Source: Candidatus Marinacidobacterales bacterium (GTDB taxonomy: Bacteria; Acidobacteriota; Vicinamibacteria; Marinacidobacterales; DATDRI01). From it: a stretch of DNA of 64,000 nt. The stretch spans positions 672,001-736,000 of the forward strand of contig OZ245365.1 in the NCBI GenBank assembly GCA_965226495.1. Direction: 5' to 3'. The notes under the pieces were generated by a model. That model was not told the origin of the DNA. It ran no database searches and saw only the letters and a program-made list of their open reading frames with translations. Positions 46,524 to 62,862 of this stretch are shown here, piece after piece. Position 1 is the stretch's first letter, and each line of letters opens with the position of its first letter. Made by a program: the position numbers and the translations under genes.

Positions 46524-47710
46524 TCGACCACACTCGTCAGGAGCTCGCTGAGCTTACGGCCTCTTTCCTCCCACGAATAACCCTTGGCGTCTTCCGTCGC
46601 CTTCGCGGCGAGCCGGTGCGCCATTTCCGGATCGCCGGCCAACCTTTGTATGGCGGCGGCGAGGGCATCGGGGTCTCCGGGTGGAACGAGAAGCGCGTTC
46701 TCATCGTTCGTCAGAACCTCTCGCAACGATGGAAGGTCCGATGCCACGATGGCTCGACCGGATGCCATGGCTTCGAAGAGTTTGAGGGGCGATGTGAAAA
46801 CGCGGGCCGTCATCGAATCGAGCAACGGGATCACGAACACGTCGGCGCTCGTTCTCTCTTTGGCTACCTCGGGAGGTGGAAGAAAACCTCGAAATCGCAC
46901 GCGGTCGGTGAGGCCGAGTCGTTCCGCGAGGCGACGGACTCGATCGAGGTCGGGTTCCGGTGGAAGTCCACCGATCACCACCAACTCGACTCCAAGTATG
47001 TTTTTCATCGATTCGATGAGAATATCGACGCCCTTCCACGGGTAGAGCTGTCCGACGTAGTACACCTGAAGGGGTTTGTCGGCGGATCGTTCTCGGGGTG
47101 GTTGCGGTTTCGTCGGAACCTCGGTGCCATCCGGGATAACTCGCGCCGGAGCAAGCGGTGCATGGAGCTCGGAAAGAGACTTTAGAAGGCCATGGGTAAT
47201 TGCGACCACCGCAGCCGCTCCTTGGCAGACGCGGTGCTCACGTCGGCTGAGCCTCTTCAACTTGCGAGCACTCGGGGGGCGAGAGTCCGGACCTTGGTAG
47301 AGACGACGGGTTTCCTCTGAAAAGAGCGCGGCCGCAGTGTGGGCCTCGTAGATCACCAGACGTCGGTGGTACCACTTTGTGCGCAAGGCAAGATCGGCCA
47401 GGACGAGGTCTCGCGTGTACACCGCGTCGTACCGGCCGTTCGCCAAGAAAGGGATGGCTCTCGCCGCAAAGGTCAATTGTCCCCAAACCGACCCGGGAGC
47501 CGCGGTGGAAAGACGCCGCAGCTCGAGATTGGGATGCGGGGTGAGCCCGAAGAATTCCAGGCAGGCTTCATCGGATCGGGAATCACTCCGGCGCACCACG
47601 AGATCTACCTGCACCCCTTGTCGAGCCAGCGCGTGGCACGTTTGCACGGTCTGGATACCGTTGGCCCGCTCCATCGGAAAACGGATGTCGGCGAGGTAGA
47701 GCAGTCTCAT
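46520..47710 (-). CDS. Glycosyltransferase family 4
   Basis: RFPMERANGIQ, YVGQLYPWKGVD, TSPLKLFEAMASG..SDLPS. ATG 47710 overlaps the upstream stop (ATGA). Confidence 0.92.
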   Translation of the reverse strand: MRLLYLADIRFPMERANGIQTVQTCHALARQGVQVDLVVRRSDSRSDEACLEFFGLTPHPNLELRRLSTAAPGSVWGQLTFAARAIPFLANGRYDAVYTRDLVLADLALRTKWYHRRLVIYEAHTAAALFSEETRRLYQGPDSRPPSARKLKRLSRREHRVCQGAAAVVAITHGLLKSLSELHAPLAPARVIPDGTEVPTKPQPPRERSADKPLQVYYVGQLYPWKGVDILIESMKNILGVELVVIGGLPPEPDLDRVRRLAERLGLTDRVRFRGFLPPPEVAKERTSADVFVIPLLDSMTARVFTSPLKLFEAMASGRAIVASDLPSLREVLTNDENALLVPPGDPDALAAAIQRLAGDPEMAHRLAAKATEDAKGYSWEERGRKLSELLTSVVD

Positions 47711-49860
47711 TGGATGTAGCCTAATGCCCGGAGTGTGTCTTGCATCTCTCGATCCAGCTCCACTTGATTGCGAGCCGACCCCAACGGGAGGTGCCACACC
47801 CGAGCCAGCTCATCCTCCCGGTGAAGGAGGTCGTCTATCTCAGAAAGAGAAACCTGGAGCTCTTTCGGGTTTGCGTCGAAGGGGAACGCGATTGTCTCAA
47901 CACGCTCCGAGCCCAATCTCGCTCTCACCGTTTCGACCGTATGGCCGTCGCGCACAAGGGCGAAGCGAACCGGCGAACCTCCGGTCCTCGTCTGGATGAC
48001 GAGGTGTCGTCTTCTATCGTCGGCGGTGAAGGTGAGCGTCAATTTCTTGCGCTTCGAATCCACGTCGAAGAGGTCCCCGGTAACGATGGGAAACCGGAAC
48101 GCGTTTATGATTTCGACTTCCGACTCAGCATGAACCACAACGCGGGTGCCCGCTTTGTCGCCTCGAATAGAAAAGTGGAGGCCGTGCTGTCCGAGCTGGA
48201 CGAAACGCTCGAGCTCAGCAACGAGCTCGCGCGCCTGGGGCGGAACCGAAGGCAGTAGGTTCTTCCGCTCGGCGCGGTCCTTCTTGACGTCGAACAGATA
48301 CTCTTTTGGCGTCGGGACGAGCTCCCGGATATATTTGTGATCTTCATCGTAAACGGCGTAGCTCACGAACTTCGGGGCCACCAGCTCGGCAAGGAGCCGC
48401 CTTTCGCTCGTCTCGCCCCCTTCGAGTAACGGCGCGATGCTGCGGCCCTGAAAGACCGAGGGAACCGGCAACCCAGCTAGCTCCAGCAGGCTGGGAGCCA
48501 AGTCGATGTTCCCGACCAGCGAGGGTATCCGCCTGCCCGCCTTCTCGGAATGCGGCAATTTCAGAATACCGGGAATATGCAACGCTTCGCGGAAGAGAGT
48601 CTTGCCGTGCCGCGTGAAGTCATGTTCGCCAAATTCTTCGCCGTGATCGGCGGTCACGAGCAGTAGGGTCTCATCGTACAGCTCGAGTGCCTTCAAGGCC
48701 TCGACCAGCCTCCCGATCTCGCGGTCATTGTAGGCGAGCTCGTTGTCGTAGAGCTCCCGGTCCCGAGTTAGTCCCTCTTCAGCAGTCTTCACAAAAATTT
48801 CATCGAAGGGAGGTCGAGGTCGATAGCCGAAGTGGAGATCGAGGGAGTGCAGATACAAGAAGAAGCTCCGGCCACGATTTTCCTCGAGCCACGGGAGGAC
48901 CCCGTTGGTAATGTCGGCCGCGTCACTCTCGAGGGCATTGATGTGTTGCCCTGCGGAGCGCGCCTTGAAAGTCCGAAGATCCACCCACCGGTCGAATCCC
49001 TGGTTGAAAAAGAAAACGCGGGGCTTGATGACCGGATTGGCTACCCAGGCCGCGGTCGTATATCCGGACGCCCGGAATGCTTCGGCGAGGGTCAAGCGTT
49101 CGTAGGGCAGTGCGTCGTCGATGGTGCGCGCTTGGTGGTACATCGGAAGTAGTGAAGTGAACAGGCAGCCGGTGGACGGCTTGGTCCAAGGGGCACACGA
49201 CATGAGCTCCTCGAGGACGACGCCGTCCTCGGCTAGCGCGTCGAGTGTTGGAGTTGCGGGGAGCGGGTAGCCGTAGGCGCCGACGTGGTCGGCTCGAAGA
49301 CAGTCGACCACGTAGACGAGAACGTTGGGTCTTTTCGCCTCCGCCCGCGACGCGACGCCCACGACCTCGGGGTTGCCTAGAATCACCATCGCTTGTGGAC
49401 CGTCAACCGAGAGCTCGAGCTCGAGACTCCGTCCGGCGAAGCGGCTGAGGTCGATGCGACGCTCGACCCAATCTCTCTCTTCTTGCCACACTTCTTGCCA
49501 AATCTCTTGATTGACGACTTCGCCATCCACGACCGTGAGACGGATCTCGACCGGGACCTCCGGCTTCCGCACCGCGAGCCCGAAGCGAAGCTCGCCGCCA
49601 CGAGGAACGTCGCTTCGAAAAAACAACTTCGACGGACTCTCGAGAACCAATGACGGTCGGCGATCGCCATGGATCTCCGCATCGTGTACCTCAAAGGGTG
49701 AGTTGCTGCGCACGACGGCGTTTCGGAGCGAGCCCGGGCGCTGTTCGTCCATCTCGCTCACATCCAGCAGCCGTTGGTACGTCACGAGCCTCTCCGGTGC
49801 TCGCGCGCAATTCGAGACCAAGATGGCAGCAAGGATTGCAAGGAGTCGGCTGAGGGTCAT
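47707..49860 (-). CDS. Sulfatase-fold (alkaline phosphatase superfamily) lipoprotein with an N-terminal beta-sandwich
   Basis: Lipobox LVSN-C, RPNVLVYVVDCLRADH, APWTKPS, TADHGEEF.EH, tail TLRALGYIQ. ATG 49860. Confidence 0.88.
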   Translation of the reverse strand: MTLSRLLAILAAILVSNCARAPERLVTYQRLLDVSEMDEQRPGSLRNAVVRSNSPFEVHDAEIHGDRRPSLVLESPSKLFFRSDVPRGGELRFGLAVRKPEVPVEIRLTVVDGEVVNQEIWQEVWQEERDWVERRIDLSRFAGRSLELELSVDGPQAMVILGNPEVVGVASRAEAKRPNVLVYVVDCLRADHVGAYGYPLPATPTLDALAEDGVVLEELMSCAPWTKPSTGCLFTSLLPMYHQARTIDDALPYERLTLAEAFRASGYTTAAWVANPVIKPRVFFFNQGFDRWVDLRTFKARSAGQHINALESDAADITNGVLPWLEENRGRSFFLYLHSLDLHFGYRPRPPFDEIFVKTAEEGLTRDRELYDNELAYNDREIGRLVEALKALELYDETLLLVTADHGEEFGEHDFTRHGKTLFREALHIPGILKLPHSEKAGRRIPSLVGNIDLAPSLLELAGLPVPSVFQGRSIAPLLEGGETSERRLLAELVAPKFVSYAVYDEDHKYIRELVPTPKEYLFDVKKDRAERKNLLPSVPPQARELVAELERFVQLGQHGLHFSIRGDKAGTRVVVHAESEVEIINAFRFPIVTGDLFDVDSKRKKLTLTFTADDRRRHLVIQTRTGGSPVRFALVRDGHTVETVRARLGSERVETIAFPFDANPKELQVSLSEIDDLLHREDELARVWHLPLGSARNQVELDREMQDTLRALGYIQ

Positions 49861-52800
49861 GAACCGTTCTCGCGATGCTCGCAAGTCTCGACCAGGACGT
49901 GGTCTTCGAGATCGAGTCGCTTCAGCTCTCGCTCCAGCAGAGTTCGTTGACGCTGGACGAAATCGCTCTCCGCGGGGTCGAGGACTAGAAAGGTACCTCT
50001 TCGGTAGAGTGTTCGTGCCAGCGACAGCATTCTCGCGCTGAAGTCCTGCCGGTCTGAGGCAAAGTGGATCTCGTCGTAACCGTCTTCGATGGCCGCGGTT
50101 CTCATGGTGAGCAGAATCATCAAGCGGTCGTCGGCACCTCCCGACAGTAAGCCTGTCAGGTCGGACGTCCTCTCCGGCATGACGAAGCATACCTTGCTCG
50201 GTTGCCGAGCTCGCGGTTCGAAGACCAAGGGGTTCCCCCAGGATACGGTGCCATGAGTTCCCGGCTTCACCTGCAGAAGGAGCTTCTTCGCTTCCGCGGG
50301 CACCGGCGCTTCCAACGCCGACCACCGCTTGCTGCGTCGGGCTGATCTCAGATCGGCGAGGGGAATTGGGTCGGTACCCATGCCGTCGATGGCGACACGA
50401 GCCTCCACCACGCTAGATCGTGCGGTAGCGAAGGCTCGCACGATCCGGTTGGAGGAACTATCGATGGGCCAGGCTGCCTCCGAGTCTGGCGTCACGTCGA
50501 CCGCCTCGACGGCGAGGGGACCCATCCGAAGAGAGCCGGCACTGGTGTGAGGAACGAAACGCTCCGCAACTCGCAGCTGACCGCAACCCTCGGGGTCTAT
50601 GACTTCTCTTGCGCTCCGCCAACCGAGTAGTCCAATCAGTGGCGCTCCCACGCTCGCCGCTACGAGGACGGCGGTGAGCGATCGTTCGGAGAGCTGGGTC
50701 CGTGAAAGCCAGATGACTAAGACGACAACTAACAGCGCGAGTCCGAAGATTCGCCATCCCCAGGTGTAAGACGCCGGTAGGTAGAAGAGCTCGACCCGGT
50801 GTGATCCGGCGGGCAAAGGGACCGCCCGGAAGTAGAGATTGGCCTCGAGGATGGTCGCCGCCTTGCCGTCGACCCGCGCGTGCCAGCCAGGGTCGAAGCT
50901 TTCCGACATCACGAGGTAAGAAGGCTTCGCCGATCGCGTTTCGACGACGATGTGCTCTGCGCGATATTCGACGATTTCCGCGAGGGGTGACGCGTCGATG
51001 TCAGCAGGCTCGGCGCGCATCCCTGCCGGTTCCGGGAAGTAGCAGGCCGGTTCAGTGCTCAGTAGAACGGTACGCTCCGGGCGCAGCTTGGGATCGAGGA
51101 GCCTCGCGTTGATACCTCGTTCCCCCGGAAGGACCATCGCTCGTTCTGCTAACCAGGCACGCGGCATTCGCGATTGATAAAGGAAGAGACGTACTTCGTC
51201 GTCGTAGACGAGCTCGAGGTGCACCGGGTCTGGGTTCGGCCATCCTGCGGGCAGGGCGAAGTATTTGATGTTCCAGTTGCGCAACAGGTGCGTGGGGCGA
51301 AAGGAAGAGAGCCATGCCCAGTTACCCGAAGCGTCTTTGACTTCCAGCAACGACTCGCCGGTGGAGCCGCGCGCGTACCGGCGTATGCGATCGACGTAGC
51401 TCCCTAGGTTCTTTGGCAGCAAGGAGTGGTAGGCACCCACATCCTGCACCTGGTAGGCGCCGAGGGTATTGGGCCAAAAGGGAGTGTGGTAGTTCCCGAG
51501 TAAAGTGGCGACACGAAACGTGTCGGGATCATTCCGGAGAAACTCGATCGCCGGAAACTCCGGAAAAGGTGGGTAGATGTCGGTATCGACCCGAGGGTTG
51601 AAAGCGCGAGCGTAGGAAAAGAGATCGACGAGGATGACGGCGCCCACCATGGCGGCGAATGTCGTCGCCGCAATTTTCTGTCGAACCTTGAGCTCCATCG
51701 CGAGCAGCGCAAAGCCGAGGAGCGCCAAGCCGAAGGGCAGACGGAAGACAGTGAGAACGTCATCCCGGCCGGAAAACCAGCCGGTAGCCGCCGCCGCCAC
51801 GCCCAACCCAAGCAAGAGAAGTGCGAGCACACGCTCCCACCGCATACGACTTTCCAAACTTACCGAAAATCCGATGCCCGCGAGGAGCGCCAGGCCGAAC
51901 GACGCCAGGGCAACGTGCGTCTGTAGGTAGCGCAGCCGCTCGACACCCGGAACGAGCGAGTGCAGCAGTGTGAACAGCGGACTGCCGGTCGCCAGCCCGA
52001 TTCCTACGACGACGGTTGCAAGAAGCGCGATGGAAGGACCTCGTGGAATACGGCGAAAGGCGGCGGGGACGAAGATGAGAGGCAGCAGACCGATGTAAAG
52101 TTGGCTCCTTTGCAGCTCCGGCGAAAAAGCGGTGAGAAAAACTTGAGAGCCCAGCCCCGTTGCGGCGAGCTCGGTTGCGCTCAGCACGGCACGGTTCGCG
52201 CGGCTCAGGAACTCCAAGGAAGGAAATAGGAACGGGGCGGCCAAAGAGGCTCCGAGCACGACCGCCCCCGCAGCGAGAGAGGCACGGCGAAGTGATGTCG
52301 CGAAGTTCGATAGAGAAATGAGACGAGTGATCCCGTAGATCGTGGCTCCGAGAAAATTGATAAAGATGTCCGGATAGTGACCGGCGAGTAATTGAAACGC
52401 CACCGCAACGGCAAGACCGACGTACGCGCGAGGCCGGCCGGTGGTCACCAGGTCTTCGACGAACGTCAGAAGAAGAGGGAACCAAACGAGGGAGGGCAAG
52501 ATGAACGAAATCTCGGCGCGGTGCGTGATGCTGGGGGTGAAACCGTAAACGATGGCGCCCAGGATCGAACCGGTGAGGCTCAACCCGAGCCGGCGCAGGA
52601 AGATAAAAGCGAAAAGCTGTGCCAGGAAAAGATGGAGCAGGATTTCAATGTTGTGGGCAAGCTCGGTATCGAGGACGGCGTAAATCCAAAACGGCGGATA
52701 GAGCATGCGGCTGAAACCGGCAGCTAGATGGGGAACCCCTCCTCCCGCGTAGGGGTTCCAAAGGGCAATGCGGCCTTCCTTCGCGGCGCGGGCCGAAACG

Positions 52801-53006
52801 ACGTCGAGCGCGTAGCCGTCGAGGATCGCGTCCTTGATGCGTGAGTTCACGACCGGATGGTCGGGGGTGAGTTGTCGCCATGGTTCGAGATCTTGGTGGA
52901 GCCAATCGGTGGGTAAGAGGAGATCGCCCCGCAACACCTCCCAAAAACAAAGCCAGGGCAGGGCGGCGAGGAGAGCCACCCCGAGGATCGTTTTTCGGTT
53001 CCCCAT
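49857..53006 (-). CDS. YfhO-family GT-C membrane protein with a C-terminal extension
   Basis: IALWNPYAGGGVP..LYPP, LAGHY, YIGLLPL, PRAWL, SESFDPGWHARVDG..ANLYFRAVPLPAGSHRVELFYLP. Confidence 0.88.
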   Translation of the reverse strand: MGNRKTILGVALLAALPWLCFWEVLRGDLLLPTDWLHQDLEPWRQLTPDHPVVNSRIKDAILDGYALDVVSARAAKEGRIALWNPYAGGGVPHLAAGFSRMLYPPFWIYAVLDTELAHNIEILLHLFLAQLFAFIFLRRLGLSLTGSILGAIVYGFTPSITHRAEISFILPSLVWFPLLLTFVEDLVTTGRPRAYVGLAVAVAFQLLAGHYPDIFINFLGATIYGITRLISLSNFATSLRRASLAAGAVVLGASLAAPFLFPSLEFLSRANRAVLSATELAATGLGSQVFLTAFSPELQRSQLYIGLLPLIFVPAAFRRIPRGPSIALLATVVVGIGLATGSPLFTLLHSLVPGVERLRYLQTHVALASFGLALLAGIGFSVSLESRMRWERVLALLLLGLGVAAAATGWFSGRDDVLTVFRLPFGLALLGFALLAMELKVRQKIAATTFAAMVGAVILVDLFSYARAFNPRVDTDIYPPFPEFPAIEFLRNDPDTFRVATLLGNYHTPFWPNTLGAYQVQDVGAYHSLLPKNLGSYVDRIRRYARGSTGESLLEVKDASGNWAWLSSFRPTHLLRNWNIKYFALPAGWPNPDPVHLELVYDDEVRLFLYQSRMPRAWLAERAMVLPGERGINARLLDPKLRPERTVLLSTEPACYFPEPAGMRAEPADIDASPLAEIVEYRAEHIVVETRSAKPSYLVMSESFDPGWHARVDGKAATILEANLYFRAVPLPAGSHRVELFYLPASYTWGWRIFGLALLVVVLVIWLSRTQLSERSLTAVLVAASVGAPLIGLLGWRSAREVIDPEGCGQLRVAERFVPHTSAGSLRMGPLAVEAVDVTPDSEAAWPIDSSSNRIVRAFATARSSVVEARVAIDGMGTDPIPLADLRSARRSKRWSALEAPVPAEAKKLLLQVKPGTHGTVSWGNPLVFEPRARQPSKVCFVMPERTSDLTGLLSGGADDRLMILLTMRTAAIEDGYDEIHFASDRQDFSARMLSLARTLYRRGTFLVLDPAESDFVQRQRTLLERELKRLDLEDHVLVETCEHRENGS

Positions 53007-53099
53007 GTGGAGTCTACGCTAATGAAATGGCTGATTGAGGTCAACAGTTCGACAGGAGTGGTTGCCTTTGAATCAAGGAGACTTTATCCTGCCGGATTG

Positions 53100-54344
53100 A
53101 TGCTTTCGCCGCACTCACGCCGAGCGAGGTCGAGTCATTCCGTTAATCGATTCGCTATTTCGTGCATGCTCGCCAGCTCCATCATGTCGTGTATCGCAGA
53201 GAGGGAGCCCGACCCGACGGCCGAGGACGTTGCTGAGAACTTACAGTCCCTCTCCTACACCGCCTGGAGCCCGCTCGAGCACGCAGGTAGAGCCGGTGTC
53301 GTAGGCCATGACCGGAGCCGGGCTTATCCAGCTCTCAACCTTTTCAATTCTCTCCCCCGGGCCAGAGCGACACTCATGGACATGGAGGGGAAGACGCTGC
53401 ATGAGTGGTCCCTTGACGCCGCAAAAGAATGGGCACACGTCATGCTGCGGCCAAACGGTGATCTCCTGGTGCTTAGTGAAATCCCCCGGAAGCTCCTTCG
53501 ACTGGATTGGGAGTCCAACGTCATCTGGGAAGAGGAGATCGAGGCCCACCACGACATCGACATCGCCGACAACGGTGACCTTTATGTGTTGACCGGGAAG
53601 GATGAGCGGGTCGATCACGATGGAGTCGAAATCCCGATTAGAAACGAGTTCATCTTGATCCTGACGCCGGATGGGCGAAAGAAGCGTCGCCTTTCATTCT
53701 TACCTATTTTCCGACATCTCCTCGACTTCGACCAGATAAAAAGGTTCGTAGAAACGAACGGCGAGGTGGGCGAGGGGATGCGTTTCGAAGGGGATGCGGT
53801 CGACATTTTTCATGTCAATACTCTCTCCATCATCGACCGGACACACAACGATTTTCTCCGGAAGGGCTTCGTATTGGTAGCCGCCCGGAGCCTCAACCGG
53901 GTCGCGGTCATAGATCTGGAGGCAGAAGAGCTCGTTTGGAGCTGGGGAGAGAACGATCTCGACTGGCCTCACCAGCCCGTGCTCCTAGGGAACGGGAACC
54001 TACTCATCTTCGACAACGGGACCCACCGCAAATACTCCCGGGTGATCGAGCTCGATCCGACGACGGCCGAGATCGTCTGGGAGTACAAGGGCGATCCGCC
54101 GAAGTCTTTTTACACCGCGTTGAGGGGAGGCATCCAGAAGTTAACCAACGGAAACATCCTGGTCACTGAATCACGTCGGGGTCGTGCTTTCGAAATCACG
54201 CACGAGGGAATGATCGTTTGGGATTTCTACAACCCGGATATCTATGAAAGGCCGAAAAGGCGGAGCAAGAGAGCTACTATCTATTGCATGACCAGAATCG
54301 CGCCCGATTTTCTGAACCCCCGTTTGTGGGCCCAGGTTCAGTGA
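53100..54344 (+). CDS. Arylsulfotransferase (ASST)-family beta-propeller lipoprotein
   Basis: Lipobox IMS-C, HHDID, FHVN, WPHQP, IFDNG..SRVIELDP..IVWEY, Q.L.NGNILVTES..GRAFEIT.EG.IVWDFYNP. Start uncertain. Confidence 0.82.
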   Translation: MLSPHSRRARSSHSVNRFAISCMLASSIMSCIAEREPDPTAEDVAENLQSLSYTAWSPLEHAGRAGVVGHDRSRAYPALNLFNSLPRARATLMDMEGKTLHEWSLDAAKEWAHVMLRPNGDLLVLSEIPRKLLRLDWESNVIWEEEIEAHHDIDIADNGDLYVLTGKDERVDHDGVEIPIRNEFILILTPDGRKKRRLSFLPIFRHLLDFDQIKRFVETNGEVGEGMRFEGDAVDIFHVNTLSIIDRTHNDFLRKGFVLVAARSLNRVAVIDLEAEELVWSWGENDLDWPHQPVLLGNGNLLIFDNGTHRKYSRVIELDPTTAEIVWEYKGDPPKSFYTALRGGIQKLTNGNILVTESRRGRAFEITHEGMIVWDFYNPDIYERPKRRSKRATIYCMTRIAPDFLNPRLWAQVQ

Positions 54345-54346
54345 GC

Positions 54347-55717
54347 ATGAACGTCCGGTTCCGCTGGGTTCTCTTGATGGCTCAAGTGTTCCTAGGATGC
54401 GCCGGGCATCCTCCGGAAGCCCTAGAGGCTCCAAACGCTCCCGATGGCGTTCTGTTGATTGTGGTCGATGCCTTGCGTCCCGATCACCTCGGTGTGTACG
54501 GGTACGAGCGTGCGACCTCACCCCATCTAGACAAGTGGGCGGAGCAAGCGGCGGTGTTCGAGCGGGCCTTTACGACGTCACCTTGGACGCTACCCTCGTT
54601 CGGATCGATGTTGACCGGAGAATTGCCAGCTCGACATGCTGCCGGTAGCCGGGTGCGGGAGTCCAACTGGACTGTCTCCACCCGTTTGAACGACGCGCTC
54701 CCCACGCTACCTGAGACTCTCGCCGCGTCGGGGTTCGTTACTGGCGCGATCATCAACAATCCTTGGCTTCCTCGCGGTGTCGGATTGGAAAGAGGGTTCG
54801 ATACATACGACTACCAAAGTCCGGATGAACAGAATCATCGGCGCGCCGCAGAGGTCGTAGATCTCTCCTTGAAATGGATTGCGGAGAGCTCAGAGAGTCC
54901 ATTCTTTTTCATGATGCACATCTTGGATCCTCACATGACCTACGATGCGCCCGCACCCGTCCGTGGGCGTTTCACGTCTGGTATGCCCGGTGGGTTCGAG
55001 CTACCCGTGATCGAGCCGCGAAAGATTCGGAAGCGGGCGCAATCCATTGCAGACGGTGAACGCCAGTTCATCACCGCTGCCTATGACGAGGAAATTGCCT
55101 ACGTGGACCAAGAGCTCGGGCGTTTGTTCACGGCGCTCGAAGAAGTGGGTCTCTTCGAACGTTTGGTGATCGTTTTGACTTCCGACCACGGCGAAGAGCT
55201 TTTCGATCATGGAGACTTCGAGCATGGGCACGGAATGTATCAAGAGCTCCTGCGGATCCCGCTTCTGGTCTGGGGACCCGATGTGCTGCCCGGCCGGCAC
55301 ACCGCACCAGTCTCCTTGGTCGATCTGTACGACACGATCCTTGAGTCGGTCGGGGCGACTCCCACGGGGGGGACCGCGGGGCAGTCTCTCTGGCCGGCGG
55401 TCACGAAGGGCGATGCGATCCCCGAGCGGCCGATCCTGGCCGAAGCGACGCTCTACGGGCCGGAGCGCCGCGCCATCATCCGATGGCCGTTGAAGTTGAC
55501 ACTCGAGACGGGTGTCGGCCGCCGCCGGCTCTACAACCTCGAAACCGATCCCGGAGAGCAAGCCGATTTGGCGCCCGAGGAAGAGCGTGCGGTCGAGTAT
55601 TTGTCGAATGAGCTCCGTAGCACGATGCAGGCGGCACGACAGGGAGTTGAGGCGGAGGCACTGCCCTTGGACGAGGAGATGTTGAGGGAGCTGCGCTCAC
55701 TGGGCTATGTCAACTGA
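54347..55717 (+). CDS. Sulfatase-fold lipoprotein
   Basis: Lipobox FLG-C, VVDALRPDH, SPWTLPS, DPHMTY, TSDHGEELFDHGDFEHG, tail ELRSLGYVN. Confidence 0.9.
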   Translation: MNVRFRWVLLMAQVFLGCAGHPPEALEAPNAPDGVLLIVVDALRPDHLGVYGYERATSPHLDKWAEQAAVFERAFTTSPWTLPSFGSMLTGELPARHAAGSRVRESNWTVSTRLNDALPTLPETLAASGFVTGAIINNPWLPRGVGLERGFDTYDYQSPDEQNHRRAAEVVDLSLKWIAESSESPFFFMMHILDPHMTYDAPAPVRGRFTSGMPGGFELPVIEPRKIRKRAQSIADGERQFITAAYDEEIAYVDQELGRLFTALEEVGLFERLVIVLTSDHGEELFDHGDFEHGHGMYQELLRIPLLVWGPDVLPGRHTAPVSLVDLYDTILESVGATPTGGTAGQSLWPAVTKGDAIPERPILAEATLYGPERRAIIRWPLKLTLETGVGRRRLYNLETDPGEQADLAPEEERAVEYLSNELRSTMQAARQGVEAEALPLDEEMLRELRSLGYVN

Positions 55718-55727
55718 CACCCTCGAG

Positions 55728-56924
55728 TTATTCATGCTCGGGAAGCAGACCCGGCTGAGAAAAATCCGCAGCTATTCTCGTCATGCGGTAGATCGAGGCC
55801 CTCTTGTCCCGAACTTCGTTCACGTCAGGGTTGTAGAATTCCCAAGCAACCTCTCCCTCGCGCGTGATCTCAAAAGCGTGGCCTTTCGTCGATTCGGTAA
55901 TCAAGATATTACCGTTCGGTAGCTCCTGAACTCCCCCCATCATTACCGAGAAGAAAGATTCGGGAGGCTCGGCCGTGTACTGCCAAACGATCTTGCCGGC
56001 CGATGGATTCAGTTCAATAACGCGAGAATACTGGCGGTGCGTGCCGTTGTCGAAAATCAAGATGTTCCCGTTCTCTAGAAGGACTGGTTGGTGGGGCCAA
56101 TCGAGGTCTCCCTCACCCCAAGTCCAAATGAGTTTTTCTCTTTCGACATCGAGCACGCCGATGAGATTCAGGCTTCGGGCTGCAAAGAGTACGAAGCCTT
56201 CTTGGAAGAATTCATTGACCGTACGGTCGATAATGGAAAGTGTGTTGATGTGAAAAACGTCGACGAAATCTCCTTCGAAACGGAACCCGTAGTCTATCTC
56301 GCCACCGGTTGCAATGAACTTTTGAAGTTTGTCCATGTCGAGGAGGTGGCTCAGCAGAGGGAGAAAGGAAATCGTGTGGGTGATTTGCCCTTCCGGCGAA
56401 AGAACGAGAATGCTGTGGTTCCGAACTGGAATATCTAGACCATTGTAGTTCGTATACTCCTCCGACGCGGACAGCACGTAGATCTCGCCTTCGTTGGAGA
56501 TGTCCATGTCGTGGTGAACGTAAACTTCCTGGGTCCACAACATGCTGGAATTCCAATCCAATCGAATTAGTTTGCGGGGCAGTTCGTTTAGCACCAGAAG
56601 GTCACCGTTCGGAAGCGGTTTCACGTGCTCCCACTTCTTGCCCGTGTCCAGCGACCAAGAATGCAGCTCCTTTCCGTCCATATCAATTAGGGCCGCTCGG
56701 GTCGCAACGAGAGAGTTGAACAGGTTGAGCCCAGGGTACGCGCGCTGGGGACGATGGACGACGACACCCTCCTTTTCCTTGTGCTCAATCGGACTCCACG
56801 ACGTGTAGGGAAGTGCCCTGAGCTTCCTTGCGCTCTCCTCGGGAGTCTCATCCTTGACCTTGGTCTCGATGCTGCAGGCGGCGTTCAGGCAGGCGACGCT
56901 CAAAAGGAGCAGAATCCGTTTCAT
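55728..56924 (-). CDS. Arylsulfotransferase (ASST)-family lipoprotein, paralog of 53100..54344
   Basis: Lipobox NAA-C, HHDMD, FHIN, WPHQP, IFDNG, QELPNGNILITES. ATG 56924. Confidence 0.82.
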   Translation of the reverse strand: MKRILLLLSVACLNAACSIETKVKDETPEESARKLRALPYTSWSPIEHKEKEGVVVHRPQRAYPGLNLFNSLVATRAALIDMDGKELHSWSLDTGKKWEHVKPLPNGDLLVLNELPRKLIRLDWNSSMLWTQEVYVHHDMDISNEGEIYVLSASEEYTNYNGLDIPVRNHSILVLSPEGQITHTISFLPLLSHLLDMDKLQKFIATGGEIDYGFRFEGDFVDVFHINTLSIIDRTVNEFFQEGFVLFAARSLNLIGVLDVEREKLIWTWGEGDLDWPHQPVLLENGNILIFDNGTHRQYSRVIELNPSAGKIVWQYTAEPPESFFSVMMGGVQELPNGNILITESTKGHAFEITREGEVAWEFYNPDVNEVRDKRASIYRMTRIAADFSQPGLLPEHE

Positions 56925-56938
56925 CGTTAAGCTGGCCT

Positions 56939-58405
56939 CTATTGGATGTAGCCCAGGGAGCGCAGCTCTTCCCGGACGCGCGGCGGAAGGTCGACGCTTT
57001 CTGCTCCTTCCGGCGTGGCGCGGACCGAAAATGCTTTCGATTCTCGTTGGAGCAAGGCCGACCTGAGTTCGTCGAACTTTTGGCGCGCTCCCGGGCTCAA
57101 AGTTCGTTCGTCTTTCCACTGGAGCGGCCTATGCTCACCGGGGTCGTTACCTAGATCGAACAAGAGCTCGGTCTCTGCGTCACGGTTCACGATGTACTTG
57201 AAGTGAGGGGTGCGCAGCGAGGTCCAGTCACCGCTCCGTCGCAAGCTCGAGATCGCCCCGGCGCGCTGGAGAGAAGCTTTACCCTTGAGGGTGTCTCCCA
57301 AGTTTCTGCCCCCGACGCCGTTCAACGGGTCGCCCGGTTCTTCGATGCCTGCGAAGGCAAGTAGAGTCGGCAGGATGTCGAGATGGCTCACCTGCTCCGA
57401 AATGCGGACTCCTGCTTGTACTTCTCCCGGTAGCCTTACGATCATCGGGATCTGGATAACTTCATCGAAAAGCGTGCGGTAGTGACCCTTGTCGCCATGC
57501 TCGAAGAACTCCACACCGTGGTCAGAAGTCACCACGATCAGCGTGTTCTCACGCAAGCCGTTGCGGTCCAGCGCGTCGATCAAATAGCCGATTTCGCGAT
57601 CGGTATAGAGGATCTCAGCATCGTACAGGGCGACTAAGTGGTCTAGGTCTCTCGGATCCATGTTGGCGTTGATTGCTTCGTTCTCTTGAAAGTACTCACC
57701 GGTCATCGTTCCCTGATAGTCAGCGTCGAATTTGCGCCAAAGCTCTTCGGGGGCCATGTAGTCGAAATGCACATCGAAGTAATGCAGGAAGAGAAAGAAA
57801 CGCTGATCGGACACTGTACCTAGAAACTCGATCGCCTTTTCGGTGATGAGGTGGCTGGTGACGATGCGGTGCGACATGAAATTCGTCTTCTTGACTTTGC
57901 TGTCGGTTCCTGGAATGGTGGGATCGAAATCCACCTCGTCGTAGACCGTCTTGCCCATCGCGCTCTCGTAGCTATCGAACCCGCGGCCGAAGCCGAAGAT
58001 GGGATGCAGGTAAGGCCCGCTGAACACACCGTAGGTGCGATAGCCTCGCTCGCTCAGGATTTGAGCAAGGGTCGAGTAGTCGGCGCTGAGCGTCGAGCCC
58101 GAGAAGTACTCGACACCGTGGGTCTGGGCTGGCAACCCGGTAAGCATCGTCATGTGCGTCGGCAAGGTCCAGGAGCTTTCCGCAATCACATTCTCGAAGA
58201 GCGTTCCTTCCTGAGCCAGGCGATCCAATGTGGGCGTCGTTTCTCTCGGATAGTCATAGGAGTGGACGTGATCGGCTCGCAATGAGTCGATCGAGATGAG
58301 AAGAATGTTGACCGGCTGTTGCTCCGGGCGCCCGGCGCAAGACACGGTGAGCCCGGTGAACGTGATGAGCCCGATCGCTAGAAAGCTTCTAGGAAATATC
58401 GTCAC
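56939..58405 (-). CDS. Sulfatase-fold lipoprotein
   Basis: Lipobox TVS-C, ISIDSLRADH, SSWTLPTH, FDVHFDY, TSDHGVEFFEHGDKGH, tail ELRSLGYIQ. Confidence 0.9.
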   Translation of the reverse strand: MTIFPRSFLAIGLITFTGLTVSCAGRPEQQPVNILLISIDSLRADHVHSYDYPRETTPTLDRLAQEGTLFENVIAESSWTLPTHMTMLTGLPAQTHGVEYFSGSTLSADYSTLAQILSERGYRTYGVFSGPYLHPIFGFGRGFDSYESAMGKTVYDEVDFDPTIPGTDSKVKKTNFMSHRIVTSHLITEKAIEFLGTVSDQRFFLFLHYFDVHFDYMAPEELWRKFDADYQGTMTGEYFQENEAINANMDPRDLDHLVALYDAEILYTDREIGYLIDALDRNGLRENTLIVVTSDHGVEFFEHGDKGHYRTLFDEVIQIPMIVRLPGEVQAGVRISEQVSHLDILPTLLAFAGIEEPGDPLNGVGGRNLGDTLKGKASLQRAGAISSLRRSGDWTSLRTPHFKYIVNRDAETELLFDLGNDPGEHRPLQWKDERTLSPGARQKFDELRSALLQRESKAFSVRATPEGAESVDLPPRVREELRSLGYIQ

Positions 58406-59820
58406 TGCACATAACCAAGGGATTCGAGGCGTTCGATCTCCTCTGGAGAGAGGACGATGTTCGGGCCACTGACGGATTGTCGTTCAGAGAAACGTTCGAG
58501 CGCTTCCTGAAGCCTGGCGACTTCTACCGAGCGTTTCTGGCCATCCCAGAGATTCTCTCGTTCTTCGGGATCGTTTTCCAAGTTGTACAGCTCATATCGG
58601 CCGGTATCGAGGTTGTAGATGAGCTTGCGCTGCTCCCACTCCACCATGATCTTGCGATCCTTCGTCCCCCAGGCGAAGCTGCCCTCACTGAAGATCGGTC
58701 GCCCGCTACTGCCTTTCGCGGCGAGTACCAGCAGGTCCTCCCCTTGGAACGGGTTGGTGTCGACCTGGGCCAGTCGGGCAAAGGTGTGGGCCAGGCTGGC
58801 GGGCTCTACCGCCTCCGAGTAACGCCGTCCCTGGAGCTCACGATCGATGTCTCCCCATATGATCAGCGGGACGTGAACGAGCTCGTCATAGACGTCTCTC
58901 CCGTGGCCGAAACGGCCTCGCTCCATGAAGTACTCGCCGTGATCGGCGGTCAAGGCAGCGATCGTCGGTCGCCGCAACGGTAAGTTTCCAATAGCTCGGA
59001 AGAGGCGGCCGATGGACTCGTCTGTAAACGCGATCTCCTCGTCATACACCGCGGTGACCGTTGTCAGCGAGAAAGGATCGGGGACGGTGTCGTCCCCCAA
59101 GGCTTCGGCGGCTCTTCGGAGCTCGCCGGCGCGGAGGCGATCGGGTACCTGCTTCGGCGGGCCATGGGCGAAGCGAAACTCCGGATGACGCACATAGGTT
59201 AGATGGGGATCGAAATAGTGTACCCATAGGAAGAAGGGCTCTTTCGCTTTCCTGCGGAGATACTTCATCGCCGTCCTCGTCACCTCGGGCGAAGTGACCG
59301 CCTCGTGGCCCTGGACCAGTGTGTCGTCGAAGGTGGCGAAGCCTTGATCGAAGTTGTAGCGCCGACTGACGAAGGTGTGCGTTACCACGGCGGTGGTGTC
59401 GTAGCCAACGTCCTGGAGTGACTCCGCGAGGGTCGTCAACTCGTTTCTTAGAGGGAGCTGGGCGCCGGTTGCCCCGTGCTCTCGGGGATAAAGAGAGGTG
59501 TGGATCGACGCGATACTGGGAAGGGTCCATGGAGCCGACGAGATCGCGCGCTCGAAAAGGACTCCCGATGCCGCGAGGCGATCGATGCGGGGCGAGGACG
59601 GACGATAGTGACCGTAGCAGCTAAGATGATCGGCTCGCAGCGTATCGACGGTGACGAGAACGAGATTGGGTTGCGGCCTGGGCACGTCGTCGGGGCCACC
59701 GCGACCATCGGTACAGGCACCGGCAGCAGAGAGGAAGCCCGAAAGTGCTGCAACGAGCTGCAAGAGTTCCCGCCGGGAGAGGGAAGCTGAAAATGGAGGC
59801 TCGGGGTCGGGTGCGATCAT
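58402..59820 (-). CDS. Sulfatase-fold lipoprotein with a twin-arginine signal
   Basis: SRRELLQ..AAGA-C, VTVDTLRADH, APWTLPS, FDPHLTY, TADHGEYF, tail RLESLGYVQ. ATG 59820. Confidence 0.9.
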   Translation of the reverse strand: MIAPDPEPPFSASLSRRELLQLVAALSGFLSAAGACTDGRGGPDDVPRPQPNLVLVTVDTLRADHLSCYGHYRPSSPRIDRLAASGVLFERAISSAPWTLPSIASIHTSLYPREHGATGAQLPLRNELTTLAESLQDVGYDTTAVVTHTFVSRRYNFDQGFATFDDTLVQGHEAVTSPEVTRTAMKYLRRKAKEPFFLWVHYFDPHLTYVRHPEFRFAHGPPKQVPDRLRAGELRRAAEALGDDTVPDPFSLTTVTAVYDEEIAFTDESIGRLFRAIGNLPLRRPTIAALTADHGEYFMERGRFGHGRDVYDELVHVPLIIWGDIDRELQGRRYSEAVEPASLAHTFARLAQVDTNPFQGEDLLVLAAKGSSGRPIFSEGSFAWGTKDRKIMVEWEQRKLIYNLDTGRYELYNLENDPEERENLWDGQKRSVEVARLQEALERFSERQSVSGPNIVLSPEEIERLESLGYVQ

Positions 59821-59912
59821 GCTTCTTCGGTGTGATGTCGGTTTCTTGCGTCGTCTCCTACCGAGGAACCAGAATAGTCCGGGCCAGGATTGAAACGCAA
59901 GCCTTGCGGTCT

Positions 59913-62033
59913 TTACGGGTTCGGGCCGGTTTCCCTTCCACTTCTGGCGAGGAGCCGCTCCACGTGTTCTTTTTCTTCGCGAGCGCGTTCCATTTGTTCC
60001 CAGAAGATGGCTCGACGTTCGGGGCCGAGACGCTCGAGCCACTTCTGATTGGTGGCCTTGTCCCGATTGATCATTTCCGCGATTCGGCCCCAATGAGCCC
60101 AATCCTCGATGATGCGTTGATCAGTGGGGGCCATTCGGGCGGCCGAGAGAAGAACAAGCGCGACCGAGAGCCATGCACCGGGGCGCGTCCACTGGCGAGA
60201 GAGGAAAGCGAAGAGCGCCGCCGCTGCCATGCCGCAGGCTACCGCCGGAAGATAACCCAAACGGATGTAGTCGGGGTAACGGATGTTGAACAGAGGAATG
60301 ACGGTGACGATGAGCCAGAACGTCGCGAAAACGAAAAGCGATCTCTCTCGGGCCCGACCGCGGATTAATAGCATGAGCCCAACCGTCAAGAAAAATGCAC
60401 TGCCAGCGTACAAATACAGTAGAGACTCGGCGCCTAGAAACTCGAAATCATAGGACGGGTAATAGGTCGGGATGAACGCAAAGCTCAGCAGTCGCAGCAG
60501 AGAATGCCAAAACTGCATCAAGGACCCCTCGGAAGCGACGGTCTTGATGGTGACCGCACTCAGTTTCTCGTGGAAGAGCGCGACCCAACAGACGGCATAG
60601 ATGACACTCACCCCGACGAGGAGCACCAGCATCCGGAGACTCTTGCGAGTCAGGCGCCGACGGCAAGCGGCAAAACCGAGAGCCACCGCGGGAAACGTGA
60701 TGGCAACCTCCTTGGATGCGAGCGCTCCGGCGTAGCCAACTCCAATCGGGACGAGCCCCGATGTGCTGCCCGGACGCAAGTAGCGCGCCACCGCCATAAG
60801 GGCCAGGAGGAAGAACGTGGTGGCCAGGACGTCGGTGCGCTCGCTGATCCAAGCCAAACCCGTAGCGGCCATGGGATGAAGGGCGAAGAATGTCGCTCCG
60901 GCGAGCGCCCATTTCCATCGCACCCAGCGGGCTAGGAACCACGCAACCAAAGTGGAGTTCAGAATGTGGAGAAGGATGTTGGTCAGGTGGAAGCCTGGCG
61001 GGCGCAAGCCGTAGAGATGATAGTCGACCTGAAAGAGCGTCACGATGAGCGGGCGGTAATAGTCGTTCCCGATGCCGGTCCAATTCCAAGTGCCGTAAAA
61101 GGTGAAGAGCCACTCACCGAGCGTAATGGGGCGAGCAAAATCGAAATCGTCCCAGAAAAAACCGCTTTGCAGGGCCGGTGCATAGACGGTGAAGATACTT
61201 CCGGCCAGCGTCGTGGCGACCGCCCATCTCGGGAGCCTGCGTCCGCGCGCCGAAAGGCGAGAGGTCAGCAAGGGTGGCGCCACGATCAACCCGAGCACGA
61301 AAACACGGAGGAACGGGACACTCCATGCGGGGAGGGCGTCGAAAACGTAGGGCCTCGCCGAGTGGAGACCGATCCACATCGCTGCGGTCATGGCGGCAAG
61401 AGACCAGCAAAAACGGATCGGCGCCACGACGCGGGCCAAGCCGAGGATGAACCAACACACTCCGGCGACGGCCACCGCCAGCCCTATCCAGAGTAAGCGA
61501 TGAGTGGGGACCTCGAGCCGCACCGTTCTCAGCTGCAAGCCCAAGACCCTCCGATCGCCCGATGCTGCGTCGTGCGCCGACGGCTGAAAAGGTTCGCTGT
61601 CGAGAAGCAAATCTAGATGAGCGCCTTCTTCCGGTCCGGTCCCGATCTTTACCGTTTGCCAATCCGCCTCCATGTCTCGATTCCAAATCTCTCGCTCATC
61701 GGTCTCGATGACCAAGCGAGGGGGCGGGAAATTGGGCGGGCGCCATCCTCTGACATCGAGCTCTAGCCGCACGCCGCGAGAGCGATCGATGCCGCGAAAA
61801 TGGACGACGGCGCGGGGCCGACTCCATCGAAACCCGACCGTCCCATTCGTCTCTGAGGGGTAGAAGCCCTCATGACCCCAGAGGTCGTTCGGATGGAGGG
61901 TGACACTCGGTGTACCCGCCATCGTCCCGATCACTACGGCGGCGACCAGGAGAAAAGAGGCAGGAAGAGGGGATGTGACCAGTCGTGGCAAACGAAGCTT
62001 CCTCAGCGGCCTCTTAGCGTGCCCTTCCGGCAA
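59913..62033 (-). CDS. GT-C membrane glycosyltransferase (PMT/TMTC-like) with a periplasmic beta-sandwich
   Basis: [40 protein letters not shown]-terminal GFYPSE..FRWS module. Confidence 0.8.
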
Positions 62034-62098
62034 AGCGAAGTCAACAGTTGTTCAGAACTGCTAGGCCGTCGAGGCCGTGCGCTATACTCGCCCGTCGC

Positions 62099-62862
62099 AT
62101 GATGAAAGAGCTGGTCGCCATCCGATGGCTTGCTTGCGCCGCCGCCCTGGCGCTCTTTTTCGAGAGCGGCTGTGGGGAGGGTGAGCCTCCGAGCTCTTCG
62201 CGGTACTTTTTCGTGGACCACGCGGAAGAAGTAGGACGTGAGTTGCCGCTGCGTAAGGGGTTGCAGCTAGCGACGTCGATTACTATGGCGGACGAGACGC
62301 GCCGGAGCTTGGTGCCTCCGATCCCTTCCCGCCTCGCGTTCGATGTCGAGGTCCCGAACGATCCGGTGCTGCGATTCGGAATCGGCGTGTTCACGTTCGA
62401 CGCGCCCGGCCTGGGGGCAGCGGTGGAGTTCCATCTGTATCTCGACGCGGGTGGCAACCCGGAGGAAGTTTTCGCAGGCGTTGTGGGGCGAGCCCGGCCC
62501 AATCTTTGGTTCGACCAGGAAGTGGATCTATCGACATGGCAAGGCTCGAGCGTACGTTTGATCCTCGAAACGAAGCAAAGGGGATCGGGTGAGGCTTCGG
62601 GAGAGCGTCCAGCGCTTGCGCTTTGGGGCAATCCGGTTCTTTCGAGTCGGAGCGAACGTTCCGAGCGTCCGAACGTCATCCTGATATCCATCGACTGTCT
62701 GCGCTCCGATCATCTCGGGAGCTACGGTTACTCCCGGAACACGACCCCGAGTATCGATGCCTTGGCCGGGGACGGCGTTCTGTTCGAGACGGCGGTGAGC
62801 ACGTCGTCGTGGACGAGCTTTTGCGGGAGAGGTTGGAGGCACTCGGATACCTCGACAACTGA
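62099..62862 (+). pseudogene. Sulfatase-fold lipoprotein with most of the catalytic domain deleted
   Basis: Lipobox ESG-C, beta-sandwich, [20 protein letters not shown], then an out-of-frame jump directly to the family C-terminus [16 protein letters not shown] (stop 62860-62862). Confidence 0.8.

Follow-up and report, generated by a model that had tools for sequence, protein, structure and literature searches.

Terminal peptides bound by TPR domains and LxxLL boxes are short amphipathic or terminal peptides that recruit unrelated proteins to one receptor. SHOCT (PF09851) is described, in the excerpted text of PMC3581485, as a short, mostly C-terminal and widespread add-on beside many unrelated domains. 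Choline-O-sulfatase carries a C-terminal extension which, according to the excerpt of PMC9063841, forms subunit contacts and reaches the active site, and the FxYxxF motif of DltX/MBOAT proteins holds an invariant Tyr near the extracytoplasmic C-terminus that takes part in envelope polymer modification (excerpt of PMC12148441). Here we describe the LGY module, a helix-Gly-Tyr peptide found on sulfatase-like enzymes and on ASST-like (arylsulfate sulfotransferase-like) beta-propellers encoded in a 64,000-nucleotide stretch of a Candidatus Marinacidobacterales genome (assembly GCA_965226495.1, contig OZ245365.1, positions 672,001 to 736,000; hereafter the window). The LGY helix is a widespread portable add-on without description in the literature searched, Pfam or NCBIfam; no paper on the motif was found in that literature, a limited collection with supplements outside its scope.

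Like the choline-O-sulfatases and phosphonate monoester hydrolases of known structure (6fny, 7ptj and 2vqr), the window enzymes carry an appendage beyond a sulfatase fold, and the fold itself is the same (VIA Z 34-35). The choline-O-sulfatase tails, however, showed no L-x-x-L-G-Y likeness and are confined to one enzyme family, whereas the LGY module is found on NPP-like and ASST-like proteins and on non-enzymes. Both SHOCT and the LGY module are short portable add-ons, but the consensus differs and LGY is concentrated on exported enzymes belonging to the alkaline phosphatase (AP) superfamily; SHOCT was not among the Pfam matches of 25 tails at E<=10. With DltX/MBOAT the shared feature is the invariant Tyr. 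The sequence around it differs, and LGY follows a long amphipathic helix on lipoproteins with soluble domains rather than standing on membrane microproteins or MBOATs; no MBOAT/SGNH pair was present among 46 window open reading frames (ORFs) scanned against Pfam. The likeness to TPR-bound terminal peptides and LxxLL boxes is that of a short recruiting helix, and an LGY-TPR fusion hints at such a receptor. TPR-recognised C-terminal peptides need a free carboxylate, whereas the LGY motif does not, since internal copies (TPR fusions, the L023-type of ASST-like protein) and N-terminal copies (other ASST-like proteins) exist. The window propellers share fold and Pfam families with the ASSTs that act independently of 3'-phosphoadenosine 5'-phosphosulfate (PAPS), from E. 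coli (3elq/3ets) and Streptomyces (Cpz4, 9kf4/9kf6). They differ from these solved enzymes in having only 12-18% identity and in being lipoproteins without the N-terminal domain of E. coli ASST, and their sulfotransferase activity is putative.

Between 47.7 and 62.9 kb the window holds four intact genes of the PF00884 "sulfatase" fold, two ASST-like beta-propellers and two GT-C-type membrane proteins. All four intact sulfatase-like genes end in the pattern L-x-x-L-G-Y-(I/V)-(Q/N)-stop. Sulfatase-like lipoprotein 1 (47707..49860, minus strand), in which PF00884 is flanked by a beta-rich domain on the N-terminal side and an extra domain on the C-terminal side, ends in ...LDREMQDTLRALGYIQ-stop at 47710-47757, and sulfatase-like lipoprotein 2 (54347..55717, plus strand; PF00884) in ...LDEEMLRELRSLGYVN-stop at 55667-55714. 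The other two lie on the minus strand, with the tails ...LPPRVREELRSLGYIQ-stop at 56942-56989 in sulfatase-like lipoprotein 3 (56939..58405; 488 aa) and ...LSPEEIERLESLGYVQ-stop at 58405-58452 in sulfatase-like protein 4 (58402..59820). The extra domain of sulfatase-like 1 is beta-rich, spans about 190 residues and sits between the catalytic fold and the tail; neither this nor the N-terminal beta-rich domain matched any Pfam family. On the propellers the motif is N-terminal, 12-20 residues past the lipobox Cys. ASST-like lipoprotein 1 (53166..54344, plus strand) carries PTAEDVAENLQSLSYTAW at 53214-53267 and ASST-like lipoprotein 2 (55728..56924, minus strand; 398 aa) carries TPEESARKLRALPYTSW at 56796-56846, with the cores L-Q-S-L-S-Y-T-A-W and L-R-A-L-P-Y-T-S-W (pattern L-x-x-L-(S/P)-Y-T-x-W), so that the Gly position of the tail is S or P in both copies. 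A D-x-x-H-x-N signature follows in each propeller, at 53802-53822 and 56241-56261. The original prediction had placed an LxxL(G/S/P)Y helix at the C-terminus of all five sulfatase folds and, just after the lipid anchor, on both ASST propellers. This earlier observation is partly confirmed and holds in large part: the tail stands on four folds exactly as described, by coordinates, and both propeller motifs are in place, but the fifth gene is a deletion remnant with its tail out of frame.

In the ORF from 62048, this fifth sulfatase-like gene (62048..62862, plus strand) still encodes a lipoprotein N-terminus and a beta domain, but of PF00884 no more than the first ~50 residues (62666-62815, running to ...STSSWT). 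Its 16-residue tail (62809-62862) lies in a reading frame different from that of the ORF ending ...STSSWT. Two genomes of the same genus (G151 and G152) keep about 1.07 and 1.14 kb of extra DNA between the two gene pieces, and from this together with the shifted frame we conclude that the gene is an out-of-frame internal-deletion remnant. The two BLAST pieces share 24 query bases, a short repeat at the junction. Elsewhere in the genome (G000) two more Thr-type sulfatase-like genes (C1:1943286-1945587 and 6111527-6113811) each appear to be broken into an N-terminal ORF and a C-terminal ORF that bears the tail; these may be frameshifts or pseudogenes.

We carried out a census of the motif over the 11,703 ORFs of at least 150 aa in the 6.34 Mb genome. 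Twenty-nine of them end in L..L[GSPA]Y plus at most 4 residues. The tripeptide LGY occupied positions -5 to -3 in 25 ORFs against about 2.2 expected from its overall frequency, and it was among the three commonest tripeptides at these positions; the proteome-wide count proposed along with the original prediction places the tail far above chance. There were 26 clear terminal carriers, namely 22 with PF00884, three with PF01663 only (NPP type) and one without a family (L012). Six internal copies were also found, of which two stand at the junction between a sulfatase-like and a TPR domain (2258077-2260242 and 3053171-3055453), three have a short extension behind them and one falls within a third ASST-like protein. 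Most carriers showed a lipobox-like pattern or a hydrophobic N-terminal stretch by a simple regular expression and hydropathy heuristic. L012 (C1:1684928-1685464) has a lipobox LSGC, a low-complexity body and the tail ...ELLRSLGYVAPE, and matched no Pfam or NCBIfam family. By its lipobox-like pattern and hydrophobic stretch it looks like a small lipoprotein, and it may serve as a motif-only adaptor. For sulfate activation the genome encodes a single PAPS_reduct-family gene and one fusion of ATP sulfurylase (Sat) to adenosine 5'-phosphosulfate (APS) kinase. This fusion (C1:1509795-1511783) ends in ...IMLHLERQGYIGVTS, which has the helix-Gly-Tyr shape without the second Leu; its end LERQGYIGVTS was rejected as an LGY tail, being similar in shape but not L..LGY.

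Judged by their predicted active sites, the carriers are sulfatases by Pfam name only and not formylglycine-dependent type I enzymes. The window enzymes match PF00884 at E 1e-40 to 1e-51 and comprise the alkaline-phosphatase-type alpha/beta fold plus a C-terminal subdomain; the model of sulfatase-like 3 aligned by VIA-align to 6hr5 with Z 42.5 and a root mean square deviation of 2.1 over 351 residues. Their nucleophile site reads (S/A)-(S/P)-W-T-(L/K)-P-(S/T) where sulfatases have C/S-x-P-x-R (CAPWTKPS, SPWTLPS, SSWTLPT and APWTLPS in sulfatase-like 1 to 4), and the C/S-x-P-x-R formylglycine motif is absent from all window copies. It is because of this Thr nucleophile and the missing C-x-P-x-R that we do not count them as true sulfatases. 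W79, T80, D295 and H296 are invariant among 70 aligned homologues of sulfatase-like 3. The genome encodes 46 sulfatase-like ORFs, 11 of them Cys-type, and none of these 11 ends in the tail. Among the Thr-type ORFs, 22 end in the tail, five carry the motif internally and four are without it, three of the latter being pieces of broken genes. The tail is restricted, among the AP-fold genes of this genome, to the Thr-nucleophile sulfatase-like and the NPP-like enzymes. Against NCBIfam the carriers gave only sub-threshold matches (arylsulfatase, PehA and phosphoethanolamine transferases).

Of 120 homologues of the 488-aa enzyme, 108 retained the tail, at identities as low as about 40% and with source names pointing to Planctomycetota, Acidobacteriota and a gammaproteobacterium. 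All 109 anchored motif-bearing tails of this set share L, L, G and Y without exception, and in the 70-sequence alignment L481, L484, G485 and Y486 are as invariant as the catalytic W79, T80, D295 and H296. Among the 113 tails that fit the pattern, 111 have Y at the Tyr position and none has F (seven of the 120 homologues are without the pattern); the ASST alignment has Y there in 58 of its 59 sequences. The distance from the DPxE site to the Tyr was 48-76 residues in 100 of 105 homologues (median 60), and in the five outliers the pattern had picked an earlier site. A profile built from 25 tails of this genome matched 95 of 151 genomes sampled across the phylum, a count that includes G024 and G049, which are flagged as unpublished.

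Searches with 25 tails of 32 aa against Pfam and NCBIfam (E<=10) revealed no shared family, and in Pfam no family was common to more than two tails. A 20-column tail profile found nothing significant among PDB sequences, the best matches being the POTRA1 helix of TamA (E 0.05) and the first UBA helix of RAD23 (E 0.6-0.8). Non-significant as they are, these matches would suit the view that the module is a structural leftover, a domain-boundary cap kept for folding or stability without any part in interactions, for example the first helix of a lost TPR array or a UBA/POTRA-like helix-Gly-aromatic turn. That the motif always stands at a domain border, and leads into TPR domains in fusions, would agree with such an origin. 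Its invariance over phyla, its insertion in a propeller loop, the spaced tandem arrays and the motif-only-looking lipoprotein are nevertheless hard to explain without a function of its own, and the tail is not confidently packed on the domain, so we consider a mere leftover quite unlikely.

For the propellers, membership in the ASST-like group was indicated by matches to PF05935 (45-53 bits, cut-off 24.2) and PF14269 (48-52 bits, cut-off 27), and a Foldseek search with the model of ASST-like 2 retrieved Cpz4 (9kf6; E 1e-17, TM-score 0.63) and ASST (3ets; E 1e-11). H88, H138, N227, H278 and R301 are invariant and H225 nearly so among 59 sequences. The motifs of the two window propellers were not among the best 80 of 279 matches of a hidden Markov model (HMM) of the tail in the ORFs of the genome. 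The likeness between tail and ASST motif rests on family-level evidence. L..L.Y..W is found at the N-terminal border of the propeller in 97 of 120 ASST-like homologues (78 P, 17 G, 2 S), and L35, L38, Y40 and W43 are each at least 90% conserved in the alignment. The tail HMM, built from sulfatase-like tails only, matched 21 of these 120 homologues and always at the N-terminal site; two of the matches, at E ~0.005 with genome-size scaling, reproduce the upstream L-D-P-E-x-x-E-Q. The motif was also present at 10 of 14 orthologous ASST-like loci in other Acidobacteriota genomes, with Gly in 8 of the 10. At family level the N-terminal motif of the ASST-like proteins holds as the same module as the tail.

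Related architectures place the module in further contexts. In longer relatives of the ASST-like proteins the motif comes directly after a four-transmembrane segment or a PMT_2 (GT-C) membrane domain (P0254), and in one protein (P0247) an ASST-like domain is fused to a sulfatase-like domain that ends in the tail. The third ASST-like type of the genome (L023) carries F-P-A-E-E-L-E-R-L-K-A-L-G-Y about 17 residues before D-Y-L-H-T-N. Thirty loci yielded 22 distinct ORF stretches of this type; ten (from 8 genomes) have an insertion of about 35 residues holding L-(R/K)-x-L-G-Y and the remaining 12 are without it.

A motif-only profile searched against 1.84 billion representatives returned 345 proteins at E<=1e-3. 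Among the best 150 of them 141 end in L..LGY plus at most 5 residues, and many are contig-end fragments. We ran Pfam on 42 of these proteins and found 22 with PF00884, 8 with PF01663 only, 7 without a family and 1 DUF4332 protein. The 42 also comprised PMT_2-sulfatase-motif and AP-motif-AP-motif fusions, a Peptidase_M56 plus beta-helix protein with seven tandem copies at a period of 27-29 residues, a VWA/YfbK_C protein with five motif copies and a DUF4349 protein with two. A BRCA2-repeat protein in this set was a clear false positive. Tandem arrays were seen in P0297, P0380 and P0368, with seven copies after a BlaR1-type M56 membrane domain, five before a VWA/YfbK_C domain and, in the third, a 29-residue two-helix repeat (R-I-H-E-A-T-P-E-F-I-R-E-L-K-A-L-G-Y...) within a 117-aa fragment. 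The suggestion that a motif shared by two folds marks a portable module is supported and extended by these data, since the motif occurs on unrelated folds and in terminal, internal and N-terminal positions: at the ends of PF00884 and PF01663 enzymes, at the N-terminus and in a loop of ASST-like propellers, at TPR junctions and in arrays of M56, VWA and DUF4349 proteins.

The same range of positions bears on whether the peptide could be an export or sorting tag that is read at the C-terminus. The extreme C-terminal position in 141 of the 150 best global matches, and the exported appearance of the carriers by the lipobox and hydropathy heuristic, would be expected of such a tag. The motif is, however, also kept at N-terminal, internal and pre-TPR positions, and the carriers already have signal peptides or lipoboxes of their own; the tail shows no transmembrane segment or other feature of known C-terminal sorting signals, and no NCBIfam sorting-signal model matched. 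A sorting function is therefore scarcely credible, the internal and N-terminal copies being the decisive point. The alternative offered with the original prediction, a docking or an export tag, stands in its first half as the better-supported reading and is unlikely in its second.

An AlphaFold2 model of sulfatase-like 3, computed with the 70-sequence alignment, reached a mean predicted local distance difference test (pLDDT) score of 90.1, and its fold ends with a helix at residues 438-463. A linker at 466-470 has pLDDT below 50 and leads to the tail, a helix at 475-483 followed by L-G-Y-I-Q without regular structure (block means 70 and 68). The alignment with solved sulfatases covers mainly residues 30-466 (best Z 42.5), which places the tail beyond the common fold; in the model the tail is a tethered short helix outside the catalytic fold. 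As we read the column composition, the hydrophobic positions -13, -9, -5, -2 and +1 relative to the Tyr fall on one face of the helix. In the model of ASST-like 2 the motif forms a short helix (28-37, pLDDT ~56) that precedes the first strand. A complex prediction for ASST-like residues 19-398 with sulfatase-like 3 residues 24-488, run with separate alignments, gave scores of 0.01 and 0.00 (mark 0.32) and speaks neither for nor against binding.

A helix tethered in this manner might fold back as a lid, in cis or within a dimer, onto the active-site entrance of its own or a neighbouring subunit, with the Tyr lining or gating the pocket. This is the main rival to the reading that we prefer below, although we hold it to be unlikely. 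A precedent is the C-terminal extension of choline-O-sulfatase, which by the excerpt of PMC9063841 forms part of the active site in the adjacent subunit and is required for oligomerisation. Tail residues as invariant as the catalytic ones, the narrow spacing between DPxE and Tyr and the own motif kept by each AP domain in AP-AP fusions would all be natural for a lid, as would the motif about 17 residues before D-x-x-H-x-N in one ASST-like clade. A lid would, on the other hand, not account for motif copies on non-enzymes in tandem arrays, on a motif-only-looking small lipoprotein and before TPR domains, and one sequence would need to fit two or three unrelated active sites. In sulfatase-like 1, moreover, the domain of about 190 residues separates the tail from the catalytic fold, and the monomer model places the tail with only moderate confidence.

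The LGY module is real, strongly selected and independent of fold and position, and it lies outside the conserved catalytic fold. Because it is in addition flexibly tethered and can be arrayed, we favour the reading that it is a non-covalent docking or association helix, to which we give slightly less than an even chance. The tails are copies of a portable peptide of about 16-20 residues, (L/I/V)-(P/D/S)-x-E-x-x-E-x-L-(R/K)-(S/A)-L-G-Y-(I/V/L)-x, forming one amphipathic helix that is stopped by Gly (Pro/Ser in most ASST-like proteins) and followed by the invariant Tyr. In the window enzymes, which are lipid-anchored members of the AP superfamily, it follows the catalytic fold on a short flexible linker, and in the ASST-like proteins it is placed between lipid anchor and propeller. 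The Leu stripe and the Tyr might contact a groove of some common partner, or else another copy of the motif, with the Tyr hydroxyl providing a specific hydrogen bond, and docking of this kind would assemble at the membrane the enzymes that serve an envelope sugar-polymer pathway. As candidate partners we propose TPR domains or GT-C glycosyltransferases at their periplasmic face, because of the motif fusions to them. The strings of motifs with low-complexity spacers would be consistent with an autonomous binding unit.

Several observations weigh against docking. The fusions P0326, P0421 and P0333 keep one motif behind each AP domain, and this arrangement together with the narrow DPxE-Tyr spacing fits a cis element as well or better. 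A strict Tyr that is never Phe is not what a purely hydrophobic contact would usually show, and hydroxyl chemistry would suit it as well. The gene-neighbour support for a GT-C partner is modest, as about 6 of roughly 20 independent tail loci have one of 17 GT-C paralogues within 15 kb, counted by eye and without a control. Finally, about six full-length homologues among the 120 have no tail, which shows that the tail is not indispensable.

The strict Tyr is also the starting point of the idea originally put forward for the shared helix, namely that it acts as a covalent carrier arm. The Tyr hydroxyl would take a sulfuryl or phospho group from the ASST-like His or the AP-like Thr, and the tail would then swing to another site. 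A Tyr that is never Phe, usually third residue from the end and held on a flexible tether, would be well suited to this. Chemically the idea is conceivable. PAPS-independent aryl sulfotransferases transfer sulfate to Tyr-containing peptides, and a Tyr-sulfate intermediate of the enzyme was reported in older work, as far as the excerpt of PMC13426309 covers it, and DltX and PatA shuttle acyl groups via an invariant C-terminal Tyr (excerpt of PMC12148441). The ASST-sulfatase-like fusion P0247, which ends in the tail, and the ASST-like clade with the motif inserted just before D-x-x-H-x-N would likewise agree with transfer between the two kinds of enzyme. However, 72 of the 95 tail-bearing genomes of the phylum sample gave no match at E<=1e-10 with the ASST-like profile A2, and it is this that weakens the carrier idea; in the other direction, 23 of the 24 genomes with an A2 match also have tails (an overlap counted from two lists). 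The ASST-like gene adjoins an AP-like gene in only 2 of 14 loci of other genomes, by which a conserved ASST-like and AP-like gene pair across the phylum sample was ruled out. A carrier role is further opposed by the class of the carrier enzymes, which have the Thr nucleophile and no C-x-P-x-R and so do not look like true sulfatases, by the difference from FxYxxF with no MBOAT or SGNH family among the 46 window ORFs, and by the long conserved amphipathic helix, which a simple carrier arm would not need. We consider a covalent carrier very unlikely. A combined scheme, in which the LGY helix docks in turn on Thr-type AP-fold and ASST-like His enzymes, its Tyr shuttles a sulfuryl or phospho-linked group as an ester through an assembly that decorates an envelope polymer, and the arrays and mini-proteins are free carriers, appears to us to have the same slim chance; it would be the sulfate/phosphate equivalent of the acyl shuttle of DltX/MBOAT.

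Concerning the gene order, the stop of sulfatase-like 4 and the start of sulfatase-like 3 overlap by 4 nt (58402-58405), and 14 nt separate the stop of sulfatase-like 3 from the start codon of ASST-like 2 (56924-56939). This tight packing of the three genes suggests co-translation. A YfhO-type GT-C membrane protein (49857..53006, minus strand) lies between tail-bearing genes, and a PMT_2-like GT-C membrane protein is encoded at 59913..62033 (minus strand; weak Pfam match of 23.9 bits, the cut-off being 26.1). The upstream region at 30-47 kb is a sugar-polymer locus with GT2, PMT_2, GT4, a DegT aminotransferase, a PTPS_related membrane protein, a glycoside hydrolase and a radical SAM/SPASM protein, and with two further ORFs that look RmlC/RmlD-like by eye, without a family scan. 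The radical SAM/SPASM gene (43774-44946) adjoins "sulfatases" without the Cys/Ser motif on which an anaerobic sulfatase-maturating enzyme would act, and among its 25 best NCBIfam matches no equivalog cut-off was reached.

The Thr-nucleophile group takes in thousands of genes whose annotation in Acidobacteriota, Planctomycetota and other phyla reads "sulfatase" or "phosphodiesterase", and the tail is the most conserved feature of these enzymes outside the active site. For annotation, it separates the non-sulfatase AP-fold enzymes from the true sulfatases of the genome (22 Thr-type ORFs against 0 of 11 Cys-type). A helix-Gly-Tyr peptide common to ASST-like propellers, TPR fusions and sensor/VWA proteins offers a handle on the assembly partners of these proteins and on the envelope polymer that is decorated. 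If the Tyr were chemically active, it would represent a protein-borne carrier of a new kind, serving sulfate or phosphate groups beyond the cytoplasm.

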